DNA of 64,000 nucleotides, from positions 1 to 64,000 of the forward strand of contig JARRRI010000015.1 in the NCBI GenBank assembly GCA_037380845.1, read 5' to 3'. A program made the translations under genes and the position numbers. This stretch comes from Candidatus Sulfobium sp. (lineage in GTDB: Bacteria > Nitrospirota > Thermodesulfovibrionia > Thermodesulfovibrionales > UBA6898). Below the pieces are notes generated by a model. It was not told where the DNA came from. It ran no database searches and saw only the letters and a list, made by a program, of their open reading frames with translations. Shown here piece by piece: positions 34,205-53,984 of the stretch. Numbering within the stretch: the stretch's first letter is position 1; every line of letters begins with the position of its first letter.

Positions 34205-35248
34205 TCAATCCAGTTCAGGCCTTGGTGTCGATCCGGCAGGAGCGGGCAGAACGGGGTACTCCACCTTCGGCTGCACGCCCGTAGCGGCATGCAGAAAGGC
34301 CACGATATCGCTGATGTCCCTGTCGGTCAGGGATACGCCCAGCTGGACGTTGCCCATTATCGACACGGCCTCATCGAGGGACCAGACTTTCCCCGAATGG
34401 AAATAGGGCGGCGTGAGTGCGATATTCCGGAGAGAGGGCGATTTGAAGCTGTATTCGTCCGCCCCGATGGACGTGACCTTGTACCTCCCCTTGTCTCCCT
34501 TGAGAAGGCTGGCATCAGGACGTTCCCTGACGCCGAATTTGTAATAGCCCGTGCCTCCCATATTTATGCCGCCGTGGCAGGCAGAGCATCCCCTGGCCAT
34601 GAACTTCTCCAGGCCGCTCTTCTCCCTGGAACCAAGAGCGTTTTCGTCACCCTTAAGGAACCTGTCAAAGCGCGAGTCAGGAGTCAGGAGAGTCGCCTCA
34701 AACACCTCGATAGCACCGGCCATATTGTCAAAAGTTACCGGGTCCTTCTCTCCCGGGAAGGCATTTGAGAACATCTCGACGTACTGCGGCATGCTCTTCA
34801 GAGTGGCGACCACATTACCGGGCGTATTATTCATTTCGACCGCCGCCTGGATCGGGCCCTTCGCCTGCTCTTTCAGGTCGGGTGCGCGGCCGTCCCAGAA
34901 CTGGGCAATGTTGAAGACCGAATTAAATACCGTAGGTGAATTGCGGGGGCCTTTATGCCAGCCGTGACCGACTGCGGTCTGCTGGAAATCGGCTCCGCCC
35001 ATACCTATGTTATGGCAGGTGTTACAGCTTATCAGTCCGCTCTTCGACAGCCGCGGATCGAAATAAAGGGCTTTCCCGAGATCGACAAGCTGCGGAGTGA
35101 TCGGAATTCCCTTCACTTCCTTAAGCTCATTCGGAACAGGCTTGAAAAGGACCTGTGCCTTCTCCATAACGTCACCGCTTGCGAAGGCGGCGGCTGCAAA
35201 AACCGCAACGGAAACCGCCACCGTTAATATGCCGGCTGTTCGTTTCAT
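34205..35248 (-). CDS. Diheme cytochrome c peroxidase
   Basis: Signal peptide, DPRLSKSGLISCNTCH, QFWDGRA, CSACH, PSLRNI..TPPYFH. Confidence 0.93.
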   Translation of the reverse strand: MKRTAGILTVAVSVAVFAAAAFASGDVMEKAQVLFKPVPNELKEVKGIPITPQLVDLGKALYFDPRLSKSGLISCNTCHNIGMGGADFQQTAVGHGWHKGPRNSPTVFNSVFNIAQFWDGRAPDLKEQAKGPIQAAVEMNNTPGNVVATLKSMPQYVEMFSNAFPGEKDPVTFDNMAGAIEVFEATLLTPDSRFDRFLKGDENALGSREKSGLEKFMARGCSACHGGINMGGTGYYKFGVRERPDASLLKGDKGRYKVTSIGADEYSFKSPSLRNIALTPPYFHSGKVWSLDEAVSIMGNVQLGVSLTDRDISDIVAFLHAATGVQPKVEYPVLPAPAGSTPRPELD

Positions 35249-43660: not shown

Positions 43661-44914
43661 ATGGAGAAAGGGATTTCATTCAGCAGAATGGGCGTGATCG
43701 TTCTTATCGTGCTCATGCAGTTGGTGTTCGCCGGGATTTTTGCAGCGTCTGCCCGCGCAAGTGATGTGGATGTTTTAATCGACAAGCTGGTCGAAAAAGG
43801 GGTCCTCACCCGCAGCGATGCGGAGGCGATCCTCAAGGAGACGAAGGAGGCGGAGAGAAAGGAACAGCCGAAGGCAGAACAGATGGCAAAGGCGGAAAAG
43901 GCAGCAGCGCCCTCATGGACAGACAACATCAAGTTCTTCGGCGACTTCAGGCTACGTAACCAGTGGGAGCACCGCGAAGGCAAAGATGCTCGTGACAGGG
44001 GACGGTTCAGGTGGAGATTCGGGGCCGAAGCAAAGGTAGTCGACAACCTGCAGGTCGGCTTCCGGCTTGCCAGCGGCGGCGACGATCCGCGTTCGACAAA
44101 CCAGACTTTTGAAGACATCTTTTCGAGCAAGAGCATGAGGATTGACCGGGCCTACGCCAGGTATGAGCCCGTCGGATGGCTTACTCTCACGGGCGGCAAA
44201 TTCGCAAATCCGATATGGACGACGGCAGACCTGCTCTGGGACGACGACATCAACCCCGAGGGTCTCGCTGCTCATGTGTATATGAAAGGCGAACCGGTCG
44301 ACGTTTTCTTCAACACGGGACTGTTTGTCATGAATCAGTTTAAAAACAGTTCCGAGCCCCTCATGTTCCCTCTTCAGCTCGGCGTAAACTGGAAGGTTGC
44401 AGAAAATACTGACCTGAAGTTAGCGGGCTCCTACTATTACTTCAGCGGCCTCCAGGGAGAGACTTTGGATTTTTCAGCTAAGACCAACACGCTTGTCCCG
44501 GGAGACGGTCTGAAATACAAGTATAACGCCTTCACGGCCGAAACCGAATTGGGTTTGAGGGATGTGATATTTCCTTATGTGGGACTGTTCGGAACTTACG
44601 TCTACAATCCCGATCCCTCCGACAATAACCAGGGCTTCCTCGCAGGTGTGAAGTTCGGCGACAAAAAGGTTTCGAAGGGAGGCGACTGGCAGGTGAAATA
44701 TATGTACCGTTATCTCGAAACAGACGCCTGGCCGGATGTCTTCCCGGATTCCGATTTCTTCGGGGGCGCAACAAACGTTAAAGGTCATGAGGCGGTGGCC
44801 TCCTACGGCCTGATGAAACATGTCACACTCGGTCTCGATTATTATCACAGCAGCCAAATTCATGGTACGACCGACGAGGACCTCTTCCAGACGGACCTCG
44901 TTTTCAAGTTCTAA
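43661..44914 (+). CDS. Putative porin (probably phosphate-starvation induced)
   Basis: Signal peptide, LIDKLVEKGVLT, GDFRLR, STNQT, WDDDINPEG, C-terminal Phe. Confidence 0.85.
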   Translation: MEKGISFSRMGVIVLIVLMQLVFAGIFAASARASDVDVLIDKLVEKGVLTRSDAEAILKETKEAERKEQPKAEQMAKAEKAAAPSWTDNIKFFGDFRLRNQWEHREGKDARDRGRFRWRFGAEAKVVDNLQVGFRLASGGDDPRSTNQTFEDIFSSKSMRIDRAYARYEPVGWLTLTGGKFANPIWTTADLLWDDDINPEGLAAHVYMKGEPVDVFFNTGLFVMNQFKNSSEPLMFPLQLGVNWKVAENTDLKLAGSYYYFSGLQGETLDFSAKTNTLVPGDGLKYKYNAFTAETELGLRDVIFPYVGLFGTYVYNPDPSDNNQGFLAGVKFGDKKVSKGGDWQVKYMYRYLETDAWPDVFPDSDFFGGATNVKGHEAVASYGLMKHVTLGLDYYHSSQIHGTTDEDLFQTDLVFKF

Positions 44915-44933
44915 AGGGCTAACCCTCCACTCA

Positions 44934-44978
44934 GACTTTGCGGGCCGGAAAGACCCGGCCCGTAAAGTCACTTTTTTT
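44934..44978 (+). terminator. Intrinsic terminator
   Basis: GACTTTGCGGGCCGG...CCGGCCCGTAAAGTC followed by T7. Confidence 0.85.
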
Positions 44979-45111
44979 AACCATAAGTTCAACTTCCGGA
45001 AACTTTCACTATCAGATCTGATACCCTCATCCCCGCTGAAGTACTTAATGGACAAGTTTTCTCAAAAGCAAATATTAGCCTGAAGCACGGTTACGGAATA
45101 TGCCGACAAAT

Positions 45112-45167
45112 TTTAATTCAAATGTAATATTCCTCTAACAGGCCCGTAATAAACCCGGTGTTATAGT
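45112..45167 (+). promoter_or_regulatory. Pho-box-like array (4 repeats) plus extended -10
   Basis: TTTAAT/TGTAAT/TCTAAC/CGTAAT at 45112/23/34/45; TGnTATAGT. Confidence 0.75.
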
Positions 45168-45310
45168 GATATAAACAGCTATGAAACCGTCTTTTTAATT
45201 TCGGTCAATTTGACTTTATCAGAGGAGGTGAGGCCACGGGATAAGAATATCGTTGGTATGTCGACTGCGGGGACGCGTGCCCTGCAACACATTTATTGAA
45301 AGGAGAAAAC

Positions 45311-46321
45311 ATGAAGAAAGTTATCACACTGATGGCAGTTTTACTTACAGCGCTTTACTTTTCGCCGGCAGGAGCCGCCGACATGCTCAACGGAGCGGGC
45401 GCTACATTCCCCTATCCGGTTTATTCGGCGTGGGCGTATGCTTACAACAAGGACACCGGGGTGAAGCTGAACTACCAGTCAATAGGATCGGGCGGCGGCA
45501 TAAGGCAGATCACTGAGAGGACGGTGGACTTCGGCGCGTCCGATGCACCCCTCACCCCCGCACAGCTGAAGAAGGACAGGCTCTATCAGTTTCCCGCGGT
45601 CATGGGTGGCGTTGTCCCGGTAGTCAATATCCCGGGGGTAAAGGCGGGGAAGATGAAACTTGATTCAGCCGCCGTCTGCAAGATATACCTTGGTGAATTG
45701 AAATACTGGGACACCCCGGAAATCTCGCGATTAAACCCGGGAATGAAGTTGCCGCATCATGAAATAACCGTTGTCCACAGGTCTGACGGCTCGGGAACAA
45801 CCGCCATATTCACCCACTATCTCAGCGGGGCATGCCCTGCCTGGAAAGAGAAAGTGGGCGCCGGAACTTCCGTGAGCTGGCCCACCGGCATCGGAGGCAA
45901 AGGCAACGAAGGTGTGGCGAACTATACGAGAAGGGCGCCGGATTCCATCGGTTATGTAGAGTTTGCATATGCAGTACAAAACAAACTTGCGTATGTCCTT
46001 CTGAAAAACCCGGCAGGCAATTTCGTTGCCCCCAGCTTCGCCACCTTCGAAAACGCAGCCGCCACGGCGAATTTCGATCCCGGACAGAATTTTCATCTCT
46101 GGCTTGTCAACGCACCGGGAAAAGACGCATGGCCCATTGCAGGGGCAACCTTCATCCTCCTTGCGAAAGAGAAAAAGGATTCCAACCTCAGGACGGTAAA
46201 GTTCTTTGACTGGGCATTCAAACAGGGCGATGCGAAGGCAAAGGAACTGATTTATGTCCCCCTCCCGGAATCTTTAAAGGACAAGATCAGGACTTACTGG
46301 AAAACAAACGGCATAATATAA
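45311..46321 (+). CDS. pstS: Phosphate ABC transporter substrate-binding protein
   Basis: GAGATFP, YQSIGSGGG, DFGASD, RSDGSGTT, GGKGNEGV. Confidence 0.96.
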   Translation: MKKVITLMAVLLTALYFSPAGAADMLNGAGATFPYPVYSAWAYAYNKDTGVKLNYQSIGSGGGIRQITERTVDFGASDAPLTPAQLKKDRLYQFPAVMGGVVPVVNIPGVKAGKMKLDSAAVCKIYLGELKYWDTPEISRLNPGMKLPHHEITVVHRSDGSGTTAIFTHYLSGACPAWKEKVGAGTSVSWPTGIGGKGNEGVANYTRRAPDSIGYVEFAYAVQNKLAYVLLKNPAGNFVAPSFATFENAAATANFDPGQNFHLWLVNAPGKDAWPIAGATFILLAKEKKDSNLRTVKFFDWAFKQGDAKAKELIYVPLPESLKDKIRTYWKTNGII

Positions 46322-47104: not shown

Positions 47105-48088
47105 TCAGACCTTTCTCAGAAGGAAGGCGTGTGCAGAAAGTCCGGCGCCGAAGGCGACCATGATGCAGAAATTCCCCTTTTCCACCCCGCTTGCCAGAAT
47201 ATTGTCGAACACGAACCAGATTATCTTTTCTCCGCCGGTATGAAGCGCCCAGTGCCTTATATTTTCCACGGTGAGCGATCTCGGTTGAAGAAGGTCTCTT
47301 ACTACCTGTGCAACCGCTTTCTTTACCAGGTGAGGGAGTTTTGTAGAAAGCTGGTTATATAGCTGGCCGTTCCTGTGGACATACCGTATGGCGTCCCGGT
47401 CCTCGGGGACATAGCAACTTGAGGATGCGATGAGCTCAAGACCTTCCGGACGGTCCCAGAGCACCGCAGCCGCAGCCCCGTCGCCAAAGAGAGCATTCGA
47501 GACAAGCAGGCTCAGATCATCCCCCATCTGAAATGTGGCGGTACATATCTCTACAGAAACGCTCACTACTGCTTTGCCCCCCGCTCCCCTTGCAAGCGCC
47601 CCTGCTACTTCCAGGTTGGGGATCGCGCCACCGCAACCGCTGCCCACGAGATCATACACCCTGATATTGCGGGCGAACCCCAGTTTTTCGATAAGGTACG
47701 TCGATATGCCGGGACAGATGTAGCCTGTGCAGGTATTGACCACGAGTCCTGAAATGTCTTCGGTCGACAGCCCCGCCCTGCTCAGGGCCTTCTGTACGGC
47801 CTCGGCCGAGAGATCGACGGCCCAGCGCGCGAAACGCCAGATACGGGCGTCGGGGTCCTCGCTCAGGAAATCCTGCGGGTCTTCGATGGCGAAGTACCTT
47901 TTACGGATGGCGGGGTGCGTCAGCAGGCTGTGCATCAGCGAGCGACTCCTGGAACTCAGCCTGTCCGAATACCGGTCCAGGAGATGCTTCTCCACCTCTG
48001 CCTGGTCGGCGGAAAAAGATGGCGTCGCGACCGCGACGGATGCAATATAAACTTTTCCCGCCGTTTTTTCTTCTTCATCCATGATCAT
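47105..48088 (-). pseudogene. Type III polyketide synthase with in-frame deletion removing the catalytic Asn region
   Basis: GSGCGG (Cys), LFGDGAAA, HTGG (His) joined directly to WFV; no GNMSS motif; 327 aa. Confidence 0.7.
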
Positions 48089-49509
48089 ACCTCCATGCCT
48101 AATAACCTGAGTCCCCGCCTTATGGCACTGGTATGTCTCCAGAGAGGGGATCGCACCCCCATCATATATGCCAGCCGATGAATAGCCGGGAGAAGTCGCA
48201 TACCCAGTGACTCAGAATTCATAAAATTCATGTGTTCGTTCATTGAATTCTTTACCTGCTTCAGCATCCAGCCATAATCAACGGTGGGGGAGATGTAAAA
48301 AACGGGTTCAAGCATCTCGGCGGGTGTGAGCGAGAGAAGCCCCTGTTTTCTCGCTATTAAGTCGAGTTCCGTCCCGGGATAGGTTCGTATGCCCATCCCG
48401 AAAAAAGCCGCGTCCTTCGGACGGATAACAGTTTCGGCAAACCGGAGGGTTTCCCTTACCGTCCCCCTGGTCTCATTCGGCCCCCCCATCATGAATATCC
48501 AGACACAGGGGAGATCGTGGCGCCCGACCACCTGCGCCGCTTTATACACATGTTCGGCTGAGAACCCCTTCCCCAGTCCCTCAAGGACGGCGTCAGAAGC
48601 ACTTTCCACGGTAATGCCGATACCCGAAAAACCCGCTCTTTCCATTGACGAGATAAGGTCGTCATCGATAAAGAGGGGGTTCAATTCGAGGCTCTGCAGA
48701 GACGCCTGTGAGCGGGTCCGTATCAGTTCGTGACAAATAGCGAGCGCATGACTATAGGGAGCGTTGAAAACGTTGTCCACAAGCTCAATATTGCGGAATC
48801 CCTTCGATACCAGTCTGCCTATGTTGGCGGCAACCTCTTCAGGGTCGCCCAGGCGGTAACTGCCTCCCTCAATCTTCCGGTACGTACAGTACACGCACGA
48901 AAACTGACATCCAAGTTTTGTCTGAACGGGCCCTGTCGATAGTCTCCTGAGATATGCCGTGACATCGATGTATCGATGAAAATCGGGTAAATCACAGGAG
49001 CAACGGTCCTGCCGTGATCTAAAGTGATTGGAATAAAACGTCTCCTCCTCCAACCACGCTACCCCCTCAAGCGTCTTCGGACATCCATCAGCCAGTTCCC
49101 CGAGAAACTGAGGAAATACGGTCTCCCCGTCACCCAGCACGGCCCATTCGGCGCCGGTAAAACGGAGCAATTCCTCCGGCATTACGGAGACGGCGGCGCC
49201 GCCCAACACCAGAGGGGCAGAGGTTAAATCCCGTGCGGCGCCGATGAGAGGGGGAAGTTCCCTTATGAAGAATTCCGGGTAACTGCAGTCGTTATTATCG
49301 ATGTTCCTTATTGAAAGCCCGACAACGTCCGGCTTCTCCTTTTCAAGTTCGCGCCTGACCGCAACCACGGGGTCGTCCTCAAACATCACGTCCACAAGCC
49401 GGGCCCTGTGTCCGGCCCTCGCCGCGGCTTCCGCCACCATGCATGCCCCAAGGGGAATAACCGGCATAGGGAATTGATTGCGGTTGGTGCTTATAATGAG
49501 AACGTTCAT
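48085..49509 (-). CDS. B12-binding radical SAM protein
   Basis: PVIPLG, GLSIRNIDN, CQFSCVYC, VDNVFN; ATGA-coupled to the PKS. Confidence 0.9.
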   Translation of the reverse strand: MNVLIISTNRNQFPMPVIPLGACMVAEAAARAGHRARLVDVMFEDDPVVAVRRELEKEKPDVVGLSIRNIDNNDCSYPEFFIRELPPLIGAARDLTSAPLVLGGAAVSVMPEELLRFTGAEWAVLGDGETVFPQFLGELADGCPKTLEGVAWLEEETFYSNHFRSRQDRCSCDLPDFHRYIDVTAYLRRLSTGPVQTKLGCQFSCVYCTYRKIEGGSYRLGDPEEVAANIGRLVSKGFRNIELVDNVFNAPYSHALAICHELIRTRSQASLQSLELNPLFIDDDLISSMERAGFSGIGITVESASDAVLEGLGKGFSAEHVYKAAQVVGRHDLPCVWIFMMGGPNETRGTVRETLRFAETVIRPKDAAFFGMGIRTYPGTELDLIARKQGLLSLTPAEMLEPVFYISPTVDYGWMLKQVKNSMNEHMNFMNSESLGMRLLPAIHRLAYMMGVRSPLWRHTSAIRRGLRLLGMEV

Positions 49510-49832: not shown

Positions 49833-50240
49833 ATGAGCAGGTCGGTGCAAGAAAAGTCTTACAGATTAATAGTGCCCTTGCTTGGCTTGATGTTGGTGCT
49901 TACTGCCTGCGCAAGTCAACAGCCGCTGGTAACAATCGGACCGGCCAAAGGCGAGACGAAGATAGAGGTCAAGGCCAGCAATTTCAAGTTCCAGCCCAAC
50001 AACATCAAGGCCTATAAAGGCGGCGTGCTGGTGGTCCGGATCGAAAACATCTCGGATACGGTGCATAACTTTACGATAAACAATCCTGAAGGCCGGGCGC
50101 TGCATAGTGTGCCTCTCCCCCCCAGGAAAACTACAGCGGTCAAGGTTGACCTCTCCGAGCCGGGCACATACGAATTCTATTGCGACAAGCCTTTTCATGC
50201 CGCCTTCGGTATGAAGGGCAGGATTGAGGTCGTTCAATAG
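49833..50240 (+). CDS. Cupredoxin (type-1 Cu) lipoprotein
   Basis: Lipobox LTAC; HNF...YCDKPFHAAFGM (His/Cys/His/Met). Confidence 0.85.
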   Translation: MSRSVQEKSYRLIVPLLGLMLVLTACASQQPLVTIGPAKGETKIEVKASNFKFQPNNIKAYKGGVLVVRIENISDTVHNFTINNPEGRALHSVPLPPRKTTAVKVDLSEPGTYEFYCDKPFHAAFGMKGRIEVVQ

Positions 50241-50337
50241 CTGCAGGCTTATTTTTACAGCAAACTTGTCTTTGATTCGGGGGGATGACCGACTGTCATT
50301 AGATGGATCCTGTCCTCACATTGCCCAAGGGGGGACC

Positions 50338-51918
50338 ATGAAAAAAATGCCGGCTTTTCAGTACCGTATATGGCTCATGGTGTTGCTTACCCTCGCCGCC
50401 TCGCGGGCGCTGGCGCTTGAAAATTCACCGCAAGTCGAGAAAGGCAAAGAGATCTTTGAAAAGAAGTGTTCGATGTGTCATACCATCGGTGGAGGAAAAA
50501 AAGTCGGCCCTGACCTTCAGGGAGTCACGAAGCGGAGGGAGCGGGAGTGGCTTGTGGCCTGGATTTCCGATCCCGGCAAGATGATCAGGAGCGGTGACGA
50601 GACTGCCACAGAACTCATAAAGGGTTACGGGAATCTCCGCATGCCGGCACTCGGCCTTTCTCTTGAGGAGATATCCGCAGTGATCAGCTACCTTGACGCC
50701 AAAGAGGTCCATCGACTCGGCCCTCCCGAGGCGCAGATCATGAAAGAGACCGGAACACCCGAGGTCTATTTTCTCTCCGAGACTTATCTTCAGGCATACC
50801 AGGATGAGCGGGGGAAAAGGTATGTTCCGGTTTATGAGCATGTCTTGATGGACCTCAGGAACAGCAACAGAAAACTCGGCTTCCATGCATCGGGATGGAT
50901 AGATTACGACCTGAAGACACTCAGGACGACGAGGCGGGAGACGGACGAGCTCACTTACGCTTTCTTGAGATATGCGCCTTTTGCCGACAACCGCCTCACT
51001 TTCAATCTCGGCAGGCATCTGGTCTTCGAAGGTGTTGCATCGGAGCAGGTCGACGGACTGTCTTCGCGATGGGAGATCACGGCTAACACAGGTTTTTCGG
51101 TCTTCGGCGGAGTTCCTGTGGAGACCGAGTTCGACGGCAGGACGGGGGACCTGATTTACGGCGGACGGGTATTTCAGAGGGTTACTCGGAAGCTGGAGGC
51201 CGGGGCCTCTTTCCTGAGAGAAACCGACGATAACGGTCAATACCGGGAAGAGGCAGGCATCGACATCTGGCTGCTCCCGATGAAGAAGCTGGAATTTCAG
51301 GGCCATTCTTTCGTGAACCTGGATACGGGCGGCTGGATGGAGCATTCGTATGCCCTCCGGTACTTTCTGTCCGGTGAACTGACGGTAACGGGCCTCTTCC
51401 TCCATAGCAGTTATGATGACGCTTTTTCGGCGAGGACGCTTAATGTGTTTTCTCCGGAGTTTCTGGGGAAAGACGAGGAACTCACAAAGACAGCGGGCCA
51501 CTTCGAATATCGCTGGAGCAGGGACCTGACCGCCGTCGCGGACATTGCGGCATATTCTTACAAGGAGGCCGGCAGCGCCTTGTATTATGGCGGAGGTGCC
51601 ACGGCTACCGTCTACGGGATATCGTCGGGTATCGAACTCCACCGCATGCAGGGAAACTCGGAGAGGCTGAGGTACACCGAGTTTCGCATGTACGCAAAGA
51701 GCGGGCTCCGGAAGATGGCAATCTCGGTCGATGCCATCGACCTCCATTATGACAAGGCCTTTTCGGGTTTGAGCGACGCCTATTCCGTCGACGGTACGAT
51801 TTCTTATCCGGTGACCGGGAAGCTGAAAGCCGGACTTTCTGTCGAGTATAGCAAGAATCCGGATTTCACCGGCGACACCACTGTGCTTTTCAGGCTGGCC
51901 TATAACCTCAGGAGATGA
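50338..51918 (+). CDS. Monoheme cytochrome c fused to predicted outer-membrane beta-barrel
   Basis: Signal peptide; GKEIFEKKCSMCH...GPDL...MP...ISYL; then ~370 aa of alternating aromatic beta-strands ending VLFRLAYNL. Confidence 0.75.
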   Translation: MKKMPAFQYRIWLMVLLTLAASRALALENSPQVEKGKEIFEKKCSMCHTIGGGKKVGPDLQGVTKRREREWLVAWISDPGKMIRSGDETATELIKGYGNLRMPALGLSLEEISAVISYLDAKEVHRLGPPEAQIMKETGTPEVYFLSETYLQAYQDERGKRYVPVYEHVLMDLRNSNRKLGFHASGWIDYDLKTLRTTRRETDELTYAFLRYAPFADNRLTFNLGRHLVFEGVASEQVDGLSSRWEITANTGFSVFGGVPVETEFDGRTGDLIYGGRVFQRVTRKLEAGASFLRETDDNGQYREEAGIDIWLLPMKKLEFQGHSFVNLDTGGWMEHSYALRYFLSGELTVTGLFLHSSYDDAFSARTLNVFSPEFLGKDEELTKTAGHFEYRWSRDLTAVADIAAYSYKEAGSALYYGGGATATVYGISSGIELHRMQGNSERLRYTEFRMYAKSGLRKMAISVDAIDLHYDKAFSGLSDAYSVDGTISYPVTGKLKAGLSVEYSKNPDFTGDTTVLFRLAYNLRR

Positions 51919-52391
51919 TGATGAACAGACTGCTTATTGTCTCAATGCTGGTATCCTGTCTGGTGCTTCCAGGACTCTCGTTTCCACGGAGTCTTGACGC
52001 CGCCGAAGTAAAAATTCCGGAGACTCATCCGATCGAGCTGACCGCAAGACCGCGCTGCACCGAGTGCCACACAGATGAAACGGGCGTGGCTCTTAAACCC
52101 ATCAAGGTTTTCAGTCACAGCAGCGACTGGATCACTGTGCACCGGTTCTACGCCTCCCAGACCTTTCACCTGTGCAACGCCTGCCATAAAGAAGCCTTCT
52201 GTACGGACTGCCATGCATACAAGAACGAGTTAAAGCCCAGTAGCAGATATTCGGGCTCACCGGAGCGATGGCTCCCTCACAGGGGTGACTACCTTTTCCA
52301 GCACAGGATCGACGGCAGAATCGACCCAACGAGTTGTTTCCGCTGCCATGGCAGACAGAACAACGCACTGTGCAGGAGATGCCACCGATGA
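51915..52391 (+). CDS. Pentaheme c-type cytochrome
   Basis: CTECH, CNACH, CTDCH, CFRCH, CRRCH; signal peptide; ATGA overlap. Confidence 0.9.
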   Translation: MMMNRLLIVSMLVSCLVLPGLSFPRSLDAAEVKIPETHPIELTARPRCTECHTDETGVALKPIKVFSHSSDWITVHRFYASQTFHLCNACHKEAFCTDCHAYKNELKPSSRYSGSPERWLPHRGDYLFQHRIDGRIDPTSCFRCHGRQNNALCRRCHR

Positions 52392-53092
52392 GGCTGGAAT
52401 TCGCTCTTCTCATTCTTTTGATGCTCACCGGCTGCGGCAGCGGATCGGACGCCGGAAGGGTCTTTGTCTCCTCCTCCGGACACCCCGCCGACTGGGTCAA
52501 TCCCCTGTTCATCGGGCGAGATGACTTCCACGGCACCAGGATCAGGAATCTGAGAGATGGTCCGGAGGACGGTGTCCTGTTTGTGCGCCACTGTTCCGCC
52601 TGTCACGGTGCAAATGCAGAAGGCAAGATCGGCCCCAGCATCCGTGGTGACACCATAGACCTGATCAATACCGCTATCGGGTCCTTCCCGATCATGAGAG
52701 GCCATGCCGTCCTCAGTCAGGAGGAACGGCAGTCCATAGCAGATTATCTTTCGTCGCCCGGAGCAAATCTTCCGGCAGTGGAGTTTGTGTTCGACACATC
52801 ACTCTGCATGGAGTGTCACGGGACAGATCTCGATGGTGGCATCGCCGAGGTCAGCTGTTTTGCGTGTCATAACGGCCCGGACGGAAGCGTCGGGCACCCG
52901 GCCGGCTGGTTGTCGCGGATTGACGACCCTGCTCATTTTCATGGGAGGTATGGAAAGCGCTTTGTCGTCTCCTGTACAAACTGCCATGGTTTTGATCTGA
53001 GAGGGAGAATAGGTCCACCCTGTTCGAGTTGTCATGACGGCACGACCGCACCGGTTCTGGAACCGTTTTCATTAAACGATGCTGCAACCTGA
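52388..53092 (+). CDS. Pentaheme cytochrome c lipoprotein
   Basis: Lipobox LTGC; CSACH, CMECH, CFACH, CTNCH, CSSCH; HPADW/HPAGW repeats; ATGA overlap. Confidence 0.9.
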   Translation: MRLEFALLILLMLTGCGSGSDAGRVFVSSSGHPADWVNPLFIGRDDFHGTRIRNLRDGPEDGVLFVRHCSACHGANAEGKIGPSIRGDTIDLINTAIGSFPIMRGHAVLSQEERQSIADYLSSPGANLPAVEFVFDTSLCMECHGTDLDGGIAEVSCFACHNGPDGSVGHPAGWLSRIDDPAHFHGRYGKRFVVSCTNCHGFDLRGRIGPPCSSCHDGTTAPVLEPFSLNDAAT

Positions 53093-53183
53093 GTGCAGAC
53101 AGAAAGGAGAAAAGCGTGAAGTAGAATTTCGGCCAGGGGAATGAAAAAAAGAAGCATTAACCTAAAACATTGAGGGGGTTACC

Positions 53184-53984
53184 ATGAAAAGATTAATAGT
53201 TGTATTTCTATCAACATTTTTGTGCATGGTCGGTGGTCCGGCTTTGTCTTCAGCGGCCCAGACCTTTGATGTATCAATGGGGAATTATTTCTTCTCGCCG
53301 TCAGACCTCACGATAAACGTGGGGGACACAGTGCGATGGACTAATCCCACCGGCACTCTCCATACCACGACGAGCGGGCAAGGCTGCAGCAGCAGCACCA
53401 GCGGCGCGGTCTGGGACTCCGGAACCATGTCTAACGGCGACAGTTTTTCCGTCACCTTCGACCAGCCCGGAACGAATCCTTACCACTGCACGTTCCATTG
53501 CGGCCTCGGAATGACGGGAACGATTACCGTGATCGCGGCTTCAACGACCATTCCTCTTCCCCAAACCGCGCAGACCTTCACTTATTCCGCGGTGGCTTTG
53601 CCTTCCCTCAGCACATCGCCGGCCGAGGCACAGCCTATCGGTATCGGTGATGTTGCAACGGGCGGCGCCAATCTGGCCATAAGCGTCGCCCTCGACCAGT
53701 TTGAGGGACCTGTCGATATCTATTTCCTGCTCTATAACCAGTCAATCGATCCGGTCAACATCTACCAGTTAACGTCTTCCGGCCAGTTGCAGACGCTTGC
53801 GGCGGGGCTTGCGCCCTGGATACCGTCTTCTCCGGGCCCGATCAATCAAACCCTGTTTGGCACCATACCCCTTTCAAGCCTTCCCCCGGGAACATATCTA
53901 TTGGGAGTCGCGGTAATGCCGGCCGGCGACCAGAGCCTCGCCAAATTCTATCTCTGGGTTACGGACTTCACGGTGGTCCAGTAA
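53184..53984 (+). CDS. Plastocyanin/amicyanin-like protein with extra C-terminal domain
   Basis: FSPSDLTINVGDTVRW, HTTT, YHCTFHCGLGMTG; signal peptide. Confidence 0.85.
   Translation: MKRLIVVFLSTFLCMVGGPALSSAAQTFDVSMGNYFFSPSDLTINVGDTVRWTNPTGTLHTTTSGQGCSSSTSGAVWDSGTMSNGDSFSVTFDQPGTNPYHCTFHCGLGMTGTITVIAASTTIPLPQTAQTFTYSAVALPSLSTSPAEAQPIGIGDVATGGANLAISVALDQFEGPVDIYFLLYNQSIDPVNIYQLTSSGQLQTLAAGLAPWIPSSPGPINQTLFGTIPLSSLPPGTYLLGVAVMPAGDQSLAKFYLWVTDFTVVQ

Follow-up and report, generated by a model that had tools for sequence, protein, structure and literature searches.

Porin-cytochrome conduits are usually read as low-potential wires composed of multiheme cytochromes throughout, and sequence tells neither the direction in which such a conduit carries electrons nor the redox window in which it operates. 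Both questions are raised by a gene cluster of Candidatus Sulfobium sp. (contig JARRRI010000015.1) in which a conduit of this kind was found beside modules of a quite different type. Within the window (the whole stretch of DNA analysed, 64,000 nucleotides) the cluster spans positions 49833-53984 and comprises five genes, all encoded on the plus strand (Table 1): a cupredoxin lipoprotein (g1), a fusion of a class-I cytochrome c with an outer membrane (OM) barrel (g2), a small pentaheme cytochrome (g3), a pentaheme lipoprotein (g4) and a plastocyanin-like protein (g5). All five had been listed as co-oriented genes in a first-pass annotation of the same sequence and all were recovered. The interpretation preferred here, to which a probability of approximately 0.6 is given with the direction of electron flow excluded from the figure, is that g2-g4 form an Ext-type porin-cytochrome conduit whose ends have been re-plugged with class-I heme and copper modules.

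The three central genes are closely coupled, as had been noted in the first-pass annotation, with direct reading of the sequence giving ATGA overlaps at both the g2/g3 and the g3/g4 junctions. Gaps of 97 bases and 91 bases separate g1 from g2 and g4 from g5, respectively. No convincing promoter or terminator was identified in these two gaps by a motif scan, the scan totals being 3 promoter-like sites (2.5 expected) and 11 terminator-like sites (5.2 expected).

The relationship to Ext systems is provided by g3. This protein has 49% identity over 155 residues (E 1e-50) with P0299, a 157-amino-acid "Lipoprotein cytochrome c" of Geobacter sulfurreducens PCA that is a member of one 90% cluster within the g3 family (676 clusters at E<=0.001), and this identity to a PCA protein of the ExtC/ExtF family argues for an Ext-type conduit. 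ExtC (GSU2643) and ExtF (GSU2725) are themselves paralogues with 49% identity, the sole such pair listed for strain PCA (PMC6148476, supplementary file 3). The N-terminus implied by the primers used to delete extC in PMC8357294 differs from that of P0299 (MLLA versus MKPIQ), from which we infer P0299 to be ExtF and not ExtC. In the sections of PMC6148476 available here, ExtC and ExtF are described as pentaheme lipoproteins, ExtA and ExtG as periplasmic dodecahemes, and ExtE and ExtB as predicted barrels of 21 and 18 strands, respectively. At the sequence level the triad of the window fits the Ext core, with homology established through g3 and the barrel compared with ExtB and ExtE by strand number only; the likeness of the barrel and the two multihemes to ExtB, ExtC and ExtD, suggested from motifs in the first-pass annotation, is supported through g3.

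The same annotation had remarked on the absence of an ExtA-type periplasmic multiheme, and no ExtA/ExtG-type dodecaheme gene was found between 43661 and 55174, with ORFs (open reading frames) containing 12-13 CxxCH motifs present elsewhere in the genome. The absence holds for this cluster; as a novelty it does not stand, as extBCD clusters without a nearby extA are already known and the outer lipoprotein is often replaced (PMC6148476, Fig. 9 legend and section 19, in the parts available here). It has been reported, in the accessible portion of PMC8357294, that extB, extC and extD are each required for electrode reduction and that loss of extA has a mild effect.

With five CxxCH motifs and five further invariant histidines (H38, H68, H76, H122, and H130), g3 is predicted to carry five bis-His hemes. 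Proteins on the Geobacter side of the family possess a clear lipobox. In g3, the Cys of the motif LVSC lies inside the hydrophobic stretch of the signal peptide, at a place where a Cys is lacking in most Nitrospirota homologues. It is therefore probably not a lipoprotein, and a lipoprotein reading was not adopted as the default.

The N-terminal part of g2 was found to match PF00034 (Cytochrom_C) at residues 33-120 (8.4e-12, 46.7 bits against a cut-off of 21.3). An MP motif that contains the distal Met is retained in nine of nine fused homologues, which supports His/Met ligation of this class-I domain. One fused homologue (P0305) has a His/Met-rich insert inside the class-I domain, a type of stretch seen in copper-binding proteins.

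The C-terminal 380 amino acids of g2 had no match to any Pfam family, even at E 10. An AlphaFold2 model built from a 22-sequence alignment (mean predicted local distance difference test score, pLDDT, 79.4) consists of a helical N-terminal domain, a low-confidence linker at residues 125-137 and 22 beta strands at residues 142-525. A Foldseek search with this model gave 483 solved-structure matches at E<=0.001, the matches listed being OM barrels, and in a second structural search (VIA-align) plugged or filled barrels ranked at the top. The FimD translocation domain aligned with Z 18.9 and a root-mean-square deviation (rmsd) of 5.2 Å over 325 residues, BtuB with Z 18.0 and an rmsd of 4.0 Å over 337 residues, and MtrB, at rank 23, with Z 15.1 and an rmsd of 4.9 Å over 333 residues. 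The C-terminal part of g2 therefore models as an OM barrel, which is how it had been read from the letters alone. When solved structures were searched by sequence with g3, the g2 profile and g4, neither the barrel nor g3 found a relative.

The orientation of this barrel was read from other members of its family, in which peptidoglycan-binding domains occur at either end: LysM at the N-terminus (P0346), OmpA at the C-terminus (P0342), and SPOR at the N-terminus (P0421) or the C-terminus (P0314 and P0441). Because LysM, SPOR, and OmpA domains work in the periplasm, both ends of the barrel face that compartment, and with them the g2 heme domain. The latter is a complete class-I fold, tethered by a linker and located in the periplasm. 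A class-I cytochrome c is found on the C-terminal side of the barrel in P0314, and therefore tethering of class-I domains to this barrel would have arisen more than once. The long C-terminal extension of P0314 contains SPOR-like stretches, the class-I cytochrome c and a c7-type multiheme end, and that of P0311 ends in a stretch with four CxxCH motifs that has no Pfam match; either protein could be a genuine fusion of barrel and cytochrome or the product of merged gene calls.

A word-indexed search returned 54 proteins. Fifteen homologue clusters of 522-549 amino acids (that of the window counted) have a cytochrome c domain, and approximately 20 clusters of 410-462 amino acids have no heme domain. 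When a barrel-only profile was run against a library of 1.84 billion proteins, at least 1000 representatives were obtained at E<=0.001, 592 at <=1e-10 and 245 at <=1e-30. Given a family of this size, the heme fusion is a minority form.

Barrel loci were compared from relatives (5), from species genomes (12, labelled Nitrospirota, Nitrospirae, Nitrospira, Nitrospiraceae or Thermodesulfovibrionales) and from metagenomes (20). Sequence runs on past the barrel in 29 of these loci, and a g3 homologue comes directly next in every one of them; eight loci that end too early were left out of the count (L013, L023, L028, L030, L032, L034, L035, and L042). After g3, a BLAST-detectable relative of g4 is present in 25 loci and a 7-heme lipoprotein ORF takes the g4 position in L020; L024, L033, and L041 end too early for this position to be scored. 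The third gene is variable, with five hemes and a class-I domain in the close clade and 6-10 hemes in repeated diheme units in the distant clade. The barrel-pentaheme-lipoprotein triad is a conserved module.

Several of these loci have features of their own. In L016 a degraded copy of the cluster has the barrel split over two frames, an extended g3 frame and a g4 fragment only. Regulator genes lie directly upstream of unfused barrels in L015, L016, L033, and L036; that of L015 matches Pfam Rrf2 and the other three were assigned by their near-identical N-termini only. No such upstream regulator gene was found in the cluster of the window. A small rhodanese-domain lipoprotein is encoded approximately 800 bases upstream of the fused barrel in L012 and recalls ExtH (Geobacter extHIJKL).

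The first heme of g4 was found to lie in a class-I domain of cbb3 type, overlooked in the first-pass annotation (PF13442 at residues 64-121, 6.5e-11, 42.9 bits against a cut-off of 27). Its PIMRGH motif is also present in L003, the sole relative inspected, and the matches of g4 to solved structures are to class-I domains only (best E 2.4e-4).

On the outer sides of the triad, g1 matches PF13473 (Cupredoxin_1, 6.9e-14, 52.2 bits against a cut-off of 27) and PF00127 (Copper-bind, 7.5e-10), and its type-1 Cu ligands H78, C117, H122, and M127 are invariant in five of five aligned orthologues. The match of g5 is to PF00127 (2.3e-11, 44.4 bits against a cut-off of 21.2), with ligands H60, C102, H105, and M110. 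Each protein thus has a cupredoxin fold with the His/Cys/His/Met ligands of type-1 blue-copper proteins, and both are predicted to bind copper; they are the sole PF00127 matches in this 3.18-Mb, 100%-complete genome. With the ligands kept in both cupredoxins and the MP motif in the fused homologues, the presence of a His/Met class-I heme domain and type-1 Cu proteins, which the first-pass annotation had seen, is borne out. A class-I heme and a cupredoxin form a classical couple, as in plastocyanin and cytochrome f, amicyanin and cytochrome c551i, and rusticyanin and its cytochrome c.

Table 1. Location of the gene cluster, its subregions and other features mentioned in the text. Positions are those of the window unless preceded by a contig (C) or locus (L) label.
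Feature	Position	Strand	Description or basis
g1, cupredoxin lipoprotein	49833-50240	+	135 amino acids; lipobox LTAC; Pfam match and type-1 Cu ligands C-x4-H-x4-M
g2, class-I cytochrome c and OM barrel fusion	50338-51918	+	526 amino acids; one CxxCH
g2, signal peptide		+	Precedes the class-I domain
g2, class-I His/Met domain (predicted)	~50434-50697	+	Pfam and AlphaFold2
g2, flexible linker (predicted)		+	AlphaFold2 (low confidence)
g2, 22-strand barrel (predicted)	~50761-51915	+	AlphaFold2
g3, ExtC/ExtF-family pentaheme	51915-52391	+	158 amino acids; 5 CxxCH
g4, pentaheme lipoprotein	52388-53092	+	234 amino acids; lipobox LTGC; class-I (cbb3-type) domain and two diheme repeat units
g5, plastocyanin-like protein	53184-53984	+	266 amino acids; type-1 Cu domain and C-terminal domain
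g5, type-1 Cu domain	53268-53531	+	PF00127
g5, C-terminal domain	53535-53981	+	150 amino acids; no Pfam match even at E 10
Second Ext-like conduit	C64:1-3673	-	417-amino-acid barrel, 9-heme cytochrome, lipoprotein with at least 9 hemes (cut by contig end)
Subtilisin-like protein	C17:37629-39641		Contains the g5 C-terminal domain
Repeated-unit protein	C6:33275-34990		Contains the g5 C-terminal domain
Very large surface-type protein	C33:1-2980		Two N-terminal copies of the g5 C-terminal domain
Small protein	C13:52450-53130		Contains the g5 C-terminal domain
B12-binding radical SAM gene	48085-49509	-	Diverges from g1
Type III polyketide synthase-like gene	47105-48088	-	Diverges from g1
Degraded cluster copy	L016:5899-8409		Barrel split over two frames
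Upstream regulator gene	L015:5694-6101		Pfam Rrf2
Upstream regulator gene	L016:5520-5927		N-terminus near-identical
Upstream regulator gene	L033:3598-4005		N-terminus near-identical
Upstream regulator gene	L036:1825-2253		N-terminus near-identical
Rhodanese-domain lipoprotein	L012:4822-5145		Upstream of a fused barrel
Di-heme cytochrome c peroxidase gene	34205-35248	-	Window neighbour
Porin_5 family porin, then PstS-like phosphate-binding protein	43661-46321	+	Window neighbours

A possible arrangement of these parts can be proposed. The 22-strand barrel belongs to the size class of TonB-dependent transporters, where the barrel surrounds a plug, and of MtrB, where it surrounds MtrA, and a barrel of the former size would hold a domain of approximately 130-150 amino acids, which is the size of mature g3. 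The all-bis-His pentaheme g3 would thus sit in or at the barrel lumen, with the variable multiheme lipoprotein g4 on the outer face, and electrons would cross the OM by way of g4, g3, and the heme domain of g2. Pairs of a class-I heme and a cupredoxin would replace the low-potential periplasmic multiheme of ExtA/ExtG type, coupling the wire to a high-potential respiratory end, namely the enzymes of the heme-copper oxidase family encoded in the genome. Candidate electron sources, in a marsh sediment whose redox state oscillates, are Fe(II) outside the cell, reduced minerals and partner cells. Matching DNA was found in marsh and salt-marsh metagenome runs, eight of them being possible sources of this DNA, and no RNA run was among the runs listed. 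The wire itself would be reversible. Electron uptake is the direction tentatively favoured, export is a lesser possibility and the remainder is left to an open or bidirectional answer.

Against uptake, and against the proposed arrangement more generally, a number of observations have to be set. Low potentials are expected of the five bis-His hemes in g3, which would impose uphill steps on a chain with high-potential ends. Of the three heme-copper oxidase family genes detected, the best cbb3-like one scores 239 bits and falls below the family cut-off of 583, and NarG was not found in the genome. The AlphaFold2 model of g3 (21 sequences) had a mean pLDDT of 46.6 and was unusable, and the placing of g3 within the barrel and of g4 on its outer face is accordingly a proposal. 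The genome has 38 ORFs with at least four CxxCH motifs and DsrAB (DsrA being above its family cut-off), a content that fits an anaerobic metal or sulfur respirer which exports electrons.

The strongest of the rival explanations, which is possible but doubtful, is a conventional conduit that carries electrons outwards for the dissimilatory reduction of Fe(III), Mn(IV) or electrodes outside the cell, on the pattern of the Geobacter Ext systems. The class-I domain would then be one more docking site in the periplasm, and the blue-copper proteins would either pass electrons out to acceptors of high potential, such as Mn(IV) oxides, or take no part. The placing of g3 in the ExtC/ExtF family, whose characterised members serve electrode and metal reduction, speaks for it, as do the presence of DsrAB and the richness of the genome in multihemes (26 c7-type matches in addition to the 38 ORFs), and the cytochromes with 12-13 hemes encoded elsewhere could fill the role of ExtA, without which extBCD clusters are known in any case. 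However, the genome already has a plain Ext-like conduit on contig C64, which comprises a barrel, a 9-heme cytochrome resembling g3 in its N-terminal part (31% identity) and a multiheme lipoprotein, and from which class-I domains and copper proteins are both absent. The high-potential end of respiratory chains is where class-I His/Met domains and type-1 copper proteins typically belong, and g1 and g5 are the only two matches to the plastocyanin/azurin family in the genome. Close orthologues of g5 (74% identity) occur in G003 and G012, which together with G000 are exactly the three of 41 genomes holding a close-clade barrel, a co-occurrence to be read as a pattern and not as a statistic because these genomes are kin and not independent. 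Since a plain conduit exists and the copper proteins are restricted to this cluster, the conduit of the window would operate in a different redox window.

An extension of the preferred reading, in which the conduit is capped on both faces by pairs of a class-I heme and a blue-copper protein (g1 with the g2 domain in the periplasm, g5, whose C-terminal domain also occurs in secreted proteins, with the g4 domain at the surface, and g3 bridging the two pairs through the barrel), is distinctly speculative. If it were correct, an extracellular blue-copper protein would touch minerals, metals or partner cells, and a lineage known for sulfate reduction would possess a dedicated high-potential uptake wire.

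Whether the copper proteins belong to the system at all is the point on which a second rival, considered unlikely, differs: the system would consist of g2-g4 alone, with g1 and possibly g5 being chance neighbours that have another periplasmic role in electron transfer or copper handling. One argument for it comes from g1, which adjoins the barrel in this genome alone and in none of the 17 other loci that extend 500 bases or more upstream. Orthologues of g1 (E<=1e-19) were found in six relatives, of which two have the barrel (G003 and G012) and four do not (G002, G014, G016, and G027). The adjacency of g1 to the B12-binding radical SAM gene is kept in three more distant relatives (L047, L048, and L050), whose loci show no barrel-family gene, and is thus conserved across families without a conduit. 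In the window this gene and a type III polyketide synthase-like gene diverge from g1 on the minus strand.

For g5 the evidence is divided. It follows g4 in six of the 12 close-clade loci, from different MAGs (metagenome-assembled genomes; the window, L002, L011, L012, L014, and L017), and is present in four of the five loci that have a fused barrel and downstream sequence. It is missing after g4 in the other six (L003, L015, L016, which is degraded, L027, which is fused, L037, and L039), and the g5 homologues of L012 and L014 add CHRD domains and are without the axial Met; both observations weigh against membership, as does the presence of gaps on either side of the ATGA-coupled core. Against chance neighbourhood stand the recurrence of g5 in six loci, its presence in all three genomes that have the close-clade barrel, and the status of g1 and g5 as the only such copper proteins in the genome. 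In G012, furthermore, the orthologues of g1 and g5 are direct neighbours on one strand, with an unfused triad on a separate contig. On the basis of this adjacency and of their distributions among loci and genomes, g1 and g5 appear to form a pair whose genes may stand beside the conduit or away from it. The tie between copper proteins and conduit that the first-pass annotation had drawn consequently holds in part, the link being fair for g5 and indirect for g1, the weakest-linked member.

The C-terminal domain of g5 recurs in the genome, in a subtilisin-like protein, a repeated-unit protein, a very large surface-type protein with two N-terminal copies and a small protein. Its structural look-alikes, which serve as a lead only, are terminal domains of beta-helix, beta-propeller, fibronectin-type, and reprolysin proteins. 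This suggests that g5 is exported or surface-located, and the domain may represent a type of export or surface domain in this lineage that has yet to be catalogued.

It is very improbable that g2 is a Cyc2-type cytochrome-porin that oxidises dissolved Fe(II) by itself, with the heme inside the barrel and a blue-copper carrier as in Cyc2-rusticyanin, an analogy drawn in the first-pass annotation that is abandoned here: the single CxxCH at the N-terminus of a barrel protein, the neighbouring cupredoxin gene and the reported presence of Cyc2 in Thermodesulfovibrionia (PMC13647500, in the part available) are outweighed by a full class-I fold of approximately 90 amino acids on a low-confidence linker, 22 strands as against the 16 of Cyc2, whose heme-bearing N-terminus is short (available parts of PMC13647500 and PMC9040806), the approximately 20 homologue clusters without a heme domain, the peptidoglycan-binding domains that place the same terminus in the periplasm, the ATGA coupling of g2 to two pentahemes and the score of g1 against the rusticyanin model (17 bits against a cut-off of 146.7). 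On this last score g1 was rejected as a rusticyanin (NCBIfam model). No Cyc2-named family was found among the Pfam and NCBIfam matches, in a search that included no Cyc2 profile or sequence.

Elsewhere in the window, a di-heme cytochrome c peroxidase gene is encoded on the minus strand, and a Porin_5 family porin followed by a PstS-like phosphate-binding protein on the plus strand; neither has an evident link to the conduit.

Returning to the re-plugged conduit, the cluster is a real, conserved Ext-type conduit in a new form, with its function predicted. The fused cytochrome of high-potential type and the two flanking blue-copper proteins suggest a variant tuned to high-potential electron exchange. 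It represents a member of the Ext family in which the periplasmic multiheme appears to have been exchanged for class-I heme domains and blue-copper proteins, modules whose high-potential chemistry is well known. If the parts work together, the cluster would offer a sequence signature for high-potential, possibly uptake, conduits in uncultured Thermodesulfovibrionales of marsh sediment, and a compact set of five proteins that can be expressed and titrated. The fused and unfused forms, with and without the copper protein, would then constitute a natural experiment on how a conduit is re-plugged into a respiratory chain. A literature search, with most subscription journals outside its coverage, found no account of this cluster, nor of any fusion between a class-I cytochrome and a barrel of Ext type, in agreement with the first-pass annotation, in which the arrangement was not recognised as described.

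Among known systems, MtrCAB, MtoAB, and PioAB share the same logic of a barrel, a cytochrome proposed to lie inside it and a lipoprotein cytochrome. The barrel of g2 is not assigned to the MtrB/PioB families, as it had no barrel Pfam match at E 10 and no sequence match in the PDB, and its structural match to MtrB (Z 15.1) is no better than those to unrelated large barrels. MtrB, with 26 strands, is also larger than the 22-strand model of g2, and the counterpart of the decaheme MtrA is a pentaheme of approximately 130 amino acids. With Cyc2, the cluster shares a monoheme cytochrome fused to an OM barrel and putative high-potential carriers (blue copper and class-I cytochrome c) in the periplasm. 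It differs in that the predicted heme domain of g2 is whole, tethered and outside a larger barrel, and in the dependence of g2 on two pentahemes.

The nearest analogue in idea is the proposed uptake cluster uetABCDEFGHIJ of 'Ca. Tenderia electrophaga', which has been linked to cbb3 oxidases and combines an OM barrel, small multihemes and a cupredoxin-domain protein, UetF (bioRxiv 10.1101/2022.05.06.490989, in the part available). According to the description given there, it differs in having triheme c7-type and undecaheme cytochromes, no class-I barrel fusion and a UetF far larger than single-domain cupredoxins. A further parallel is the induction of extracellular cupredoxins on magnetite in Sideroxydans (PMC11429942).

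The closest relatives are ExtABCD (GSU2645-2642) and ExtEFG (GSU2726-2724) of G. sulfurreducens, in which a barrel gene is likewise followed by a small pentaheme of the ExtC/ExtF family and a further multiheme lipoprotein, the variable third position seen here matching the reported variability of the outer lipoprotein. Unlike these, the cluster of the window has no dodecaheme of ExtA/ExtG type and a g3 that is probably not a lipoprotein. In place of an all-multiheme wire it has a barrel with a fused, predicted periplasmic class-I cytochrome c, a third protein with a class-I heme domain, and blue-copper neighbours.

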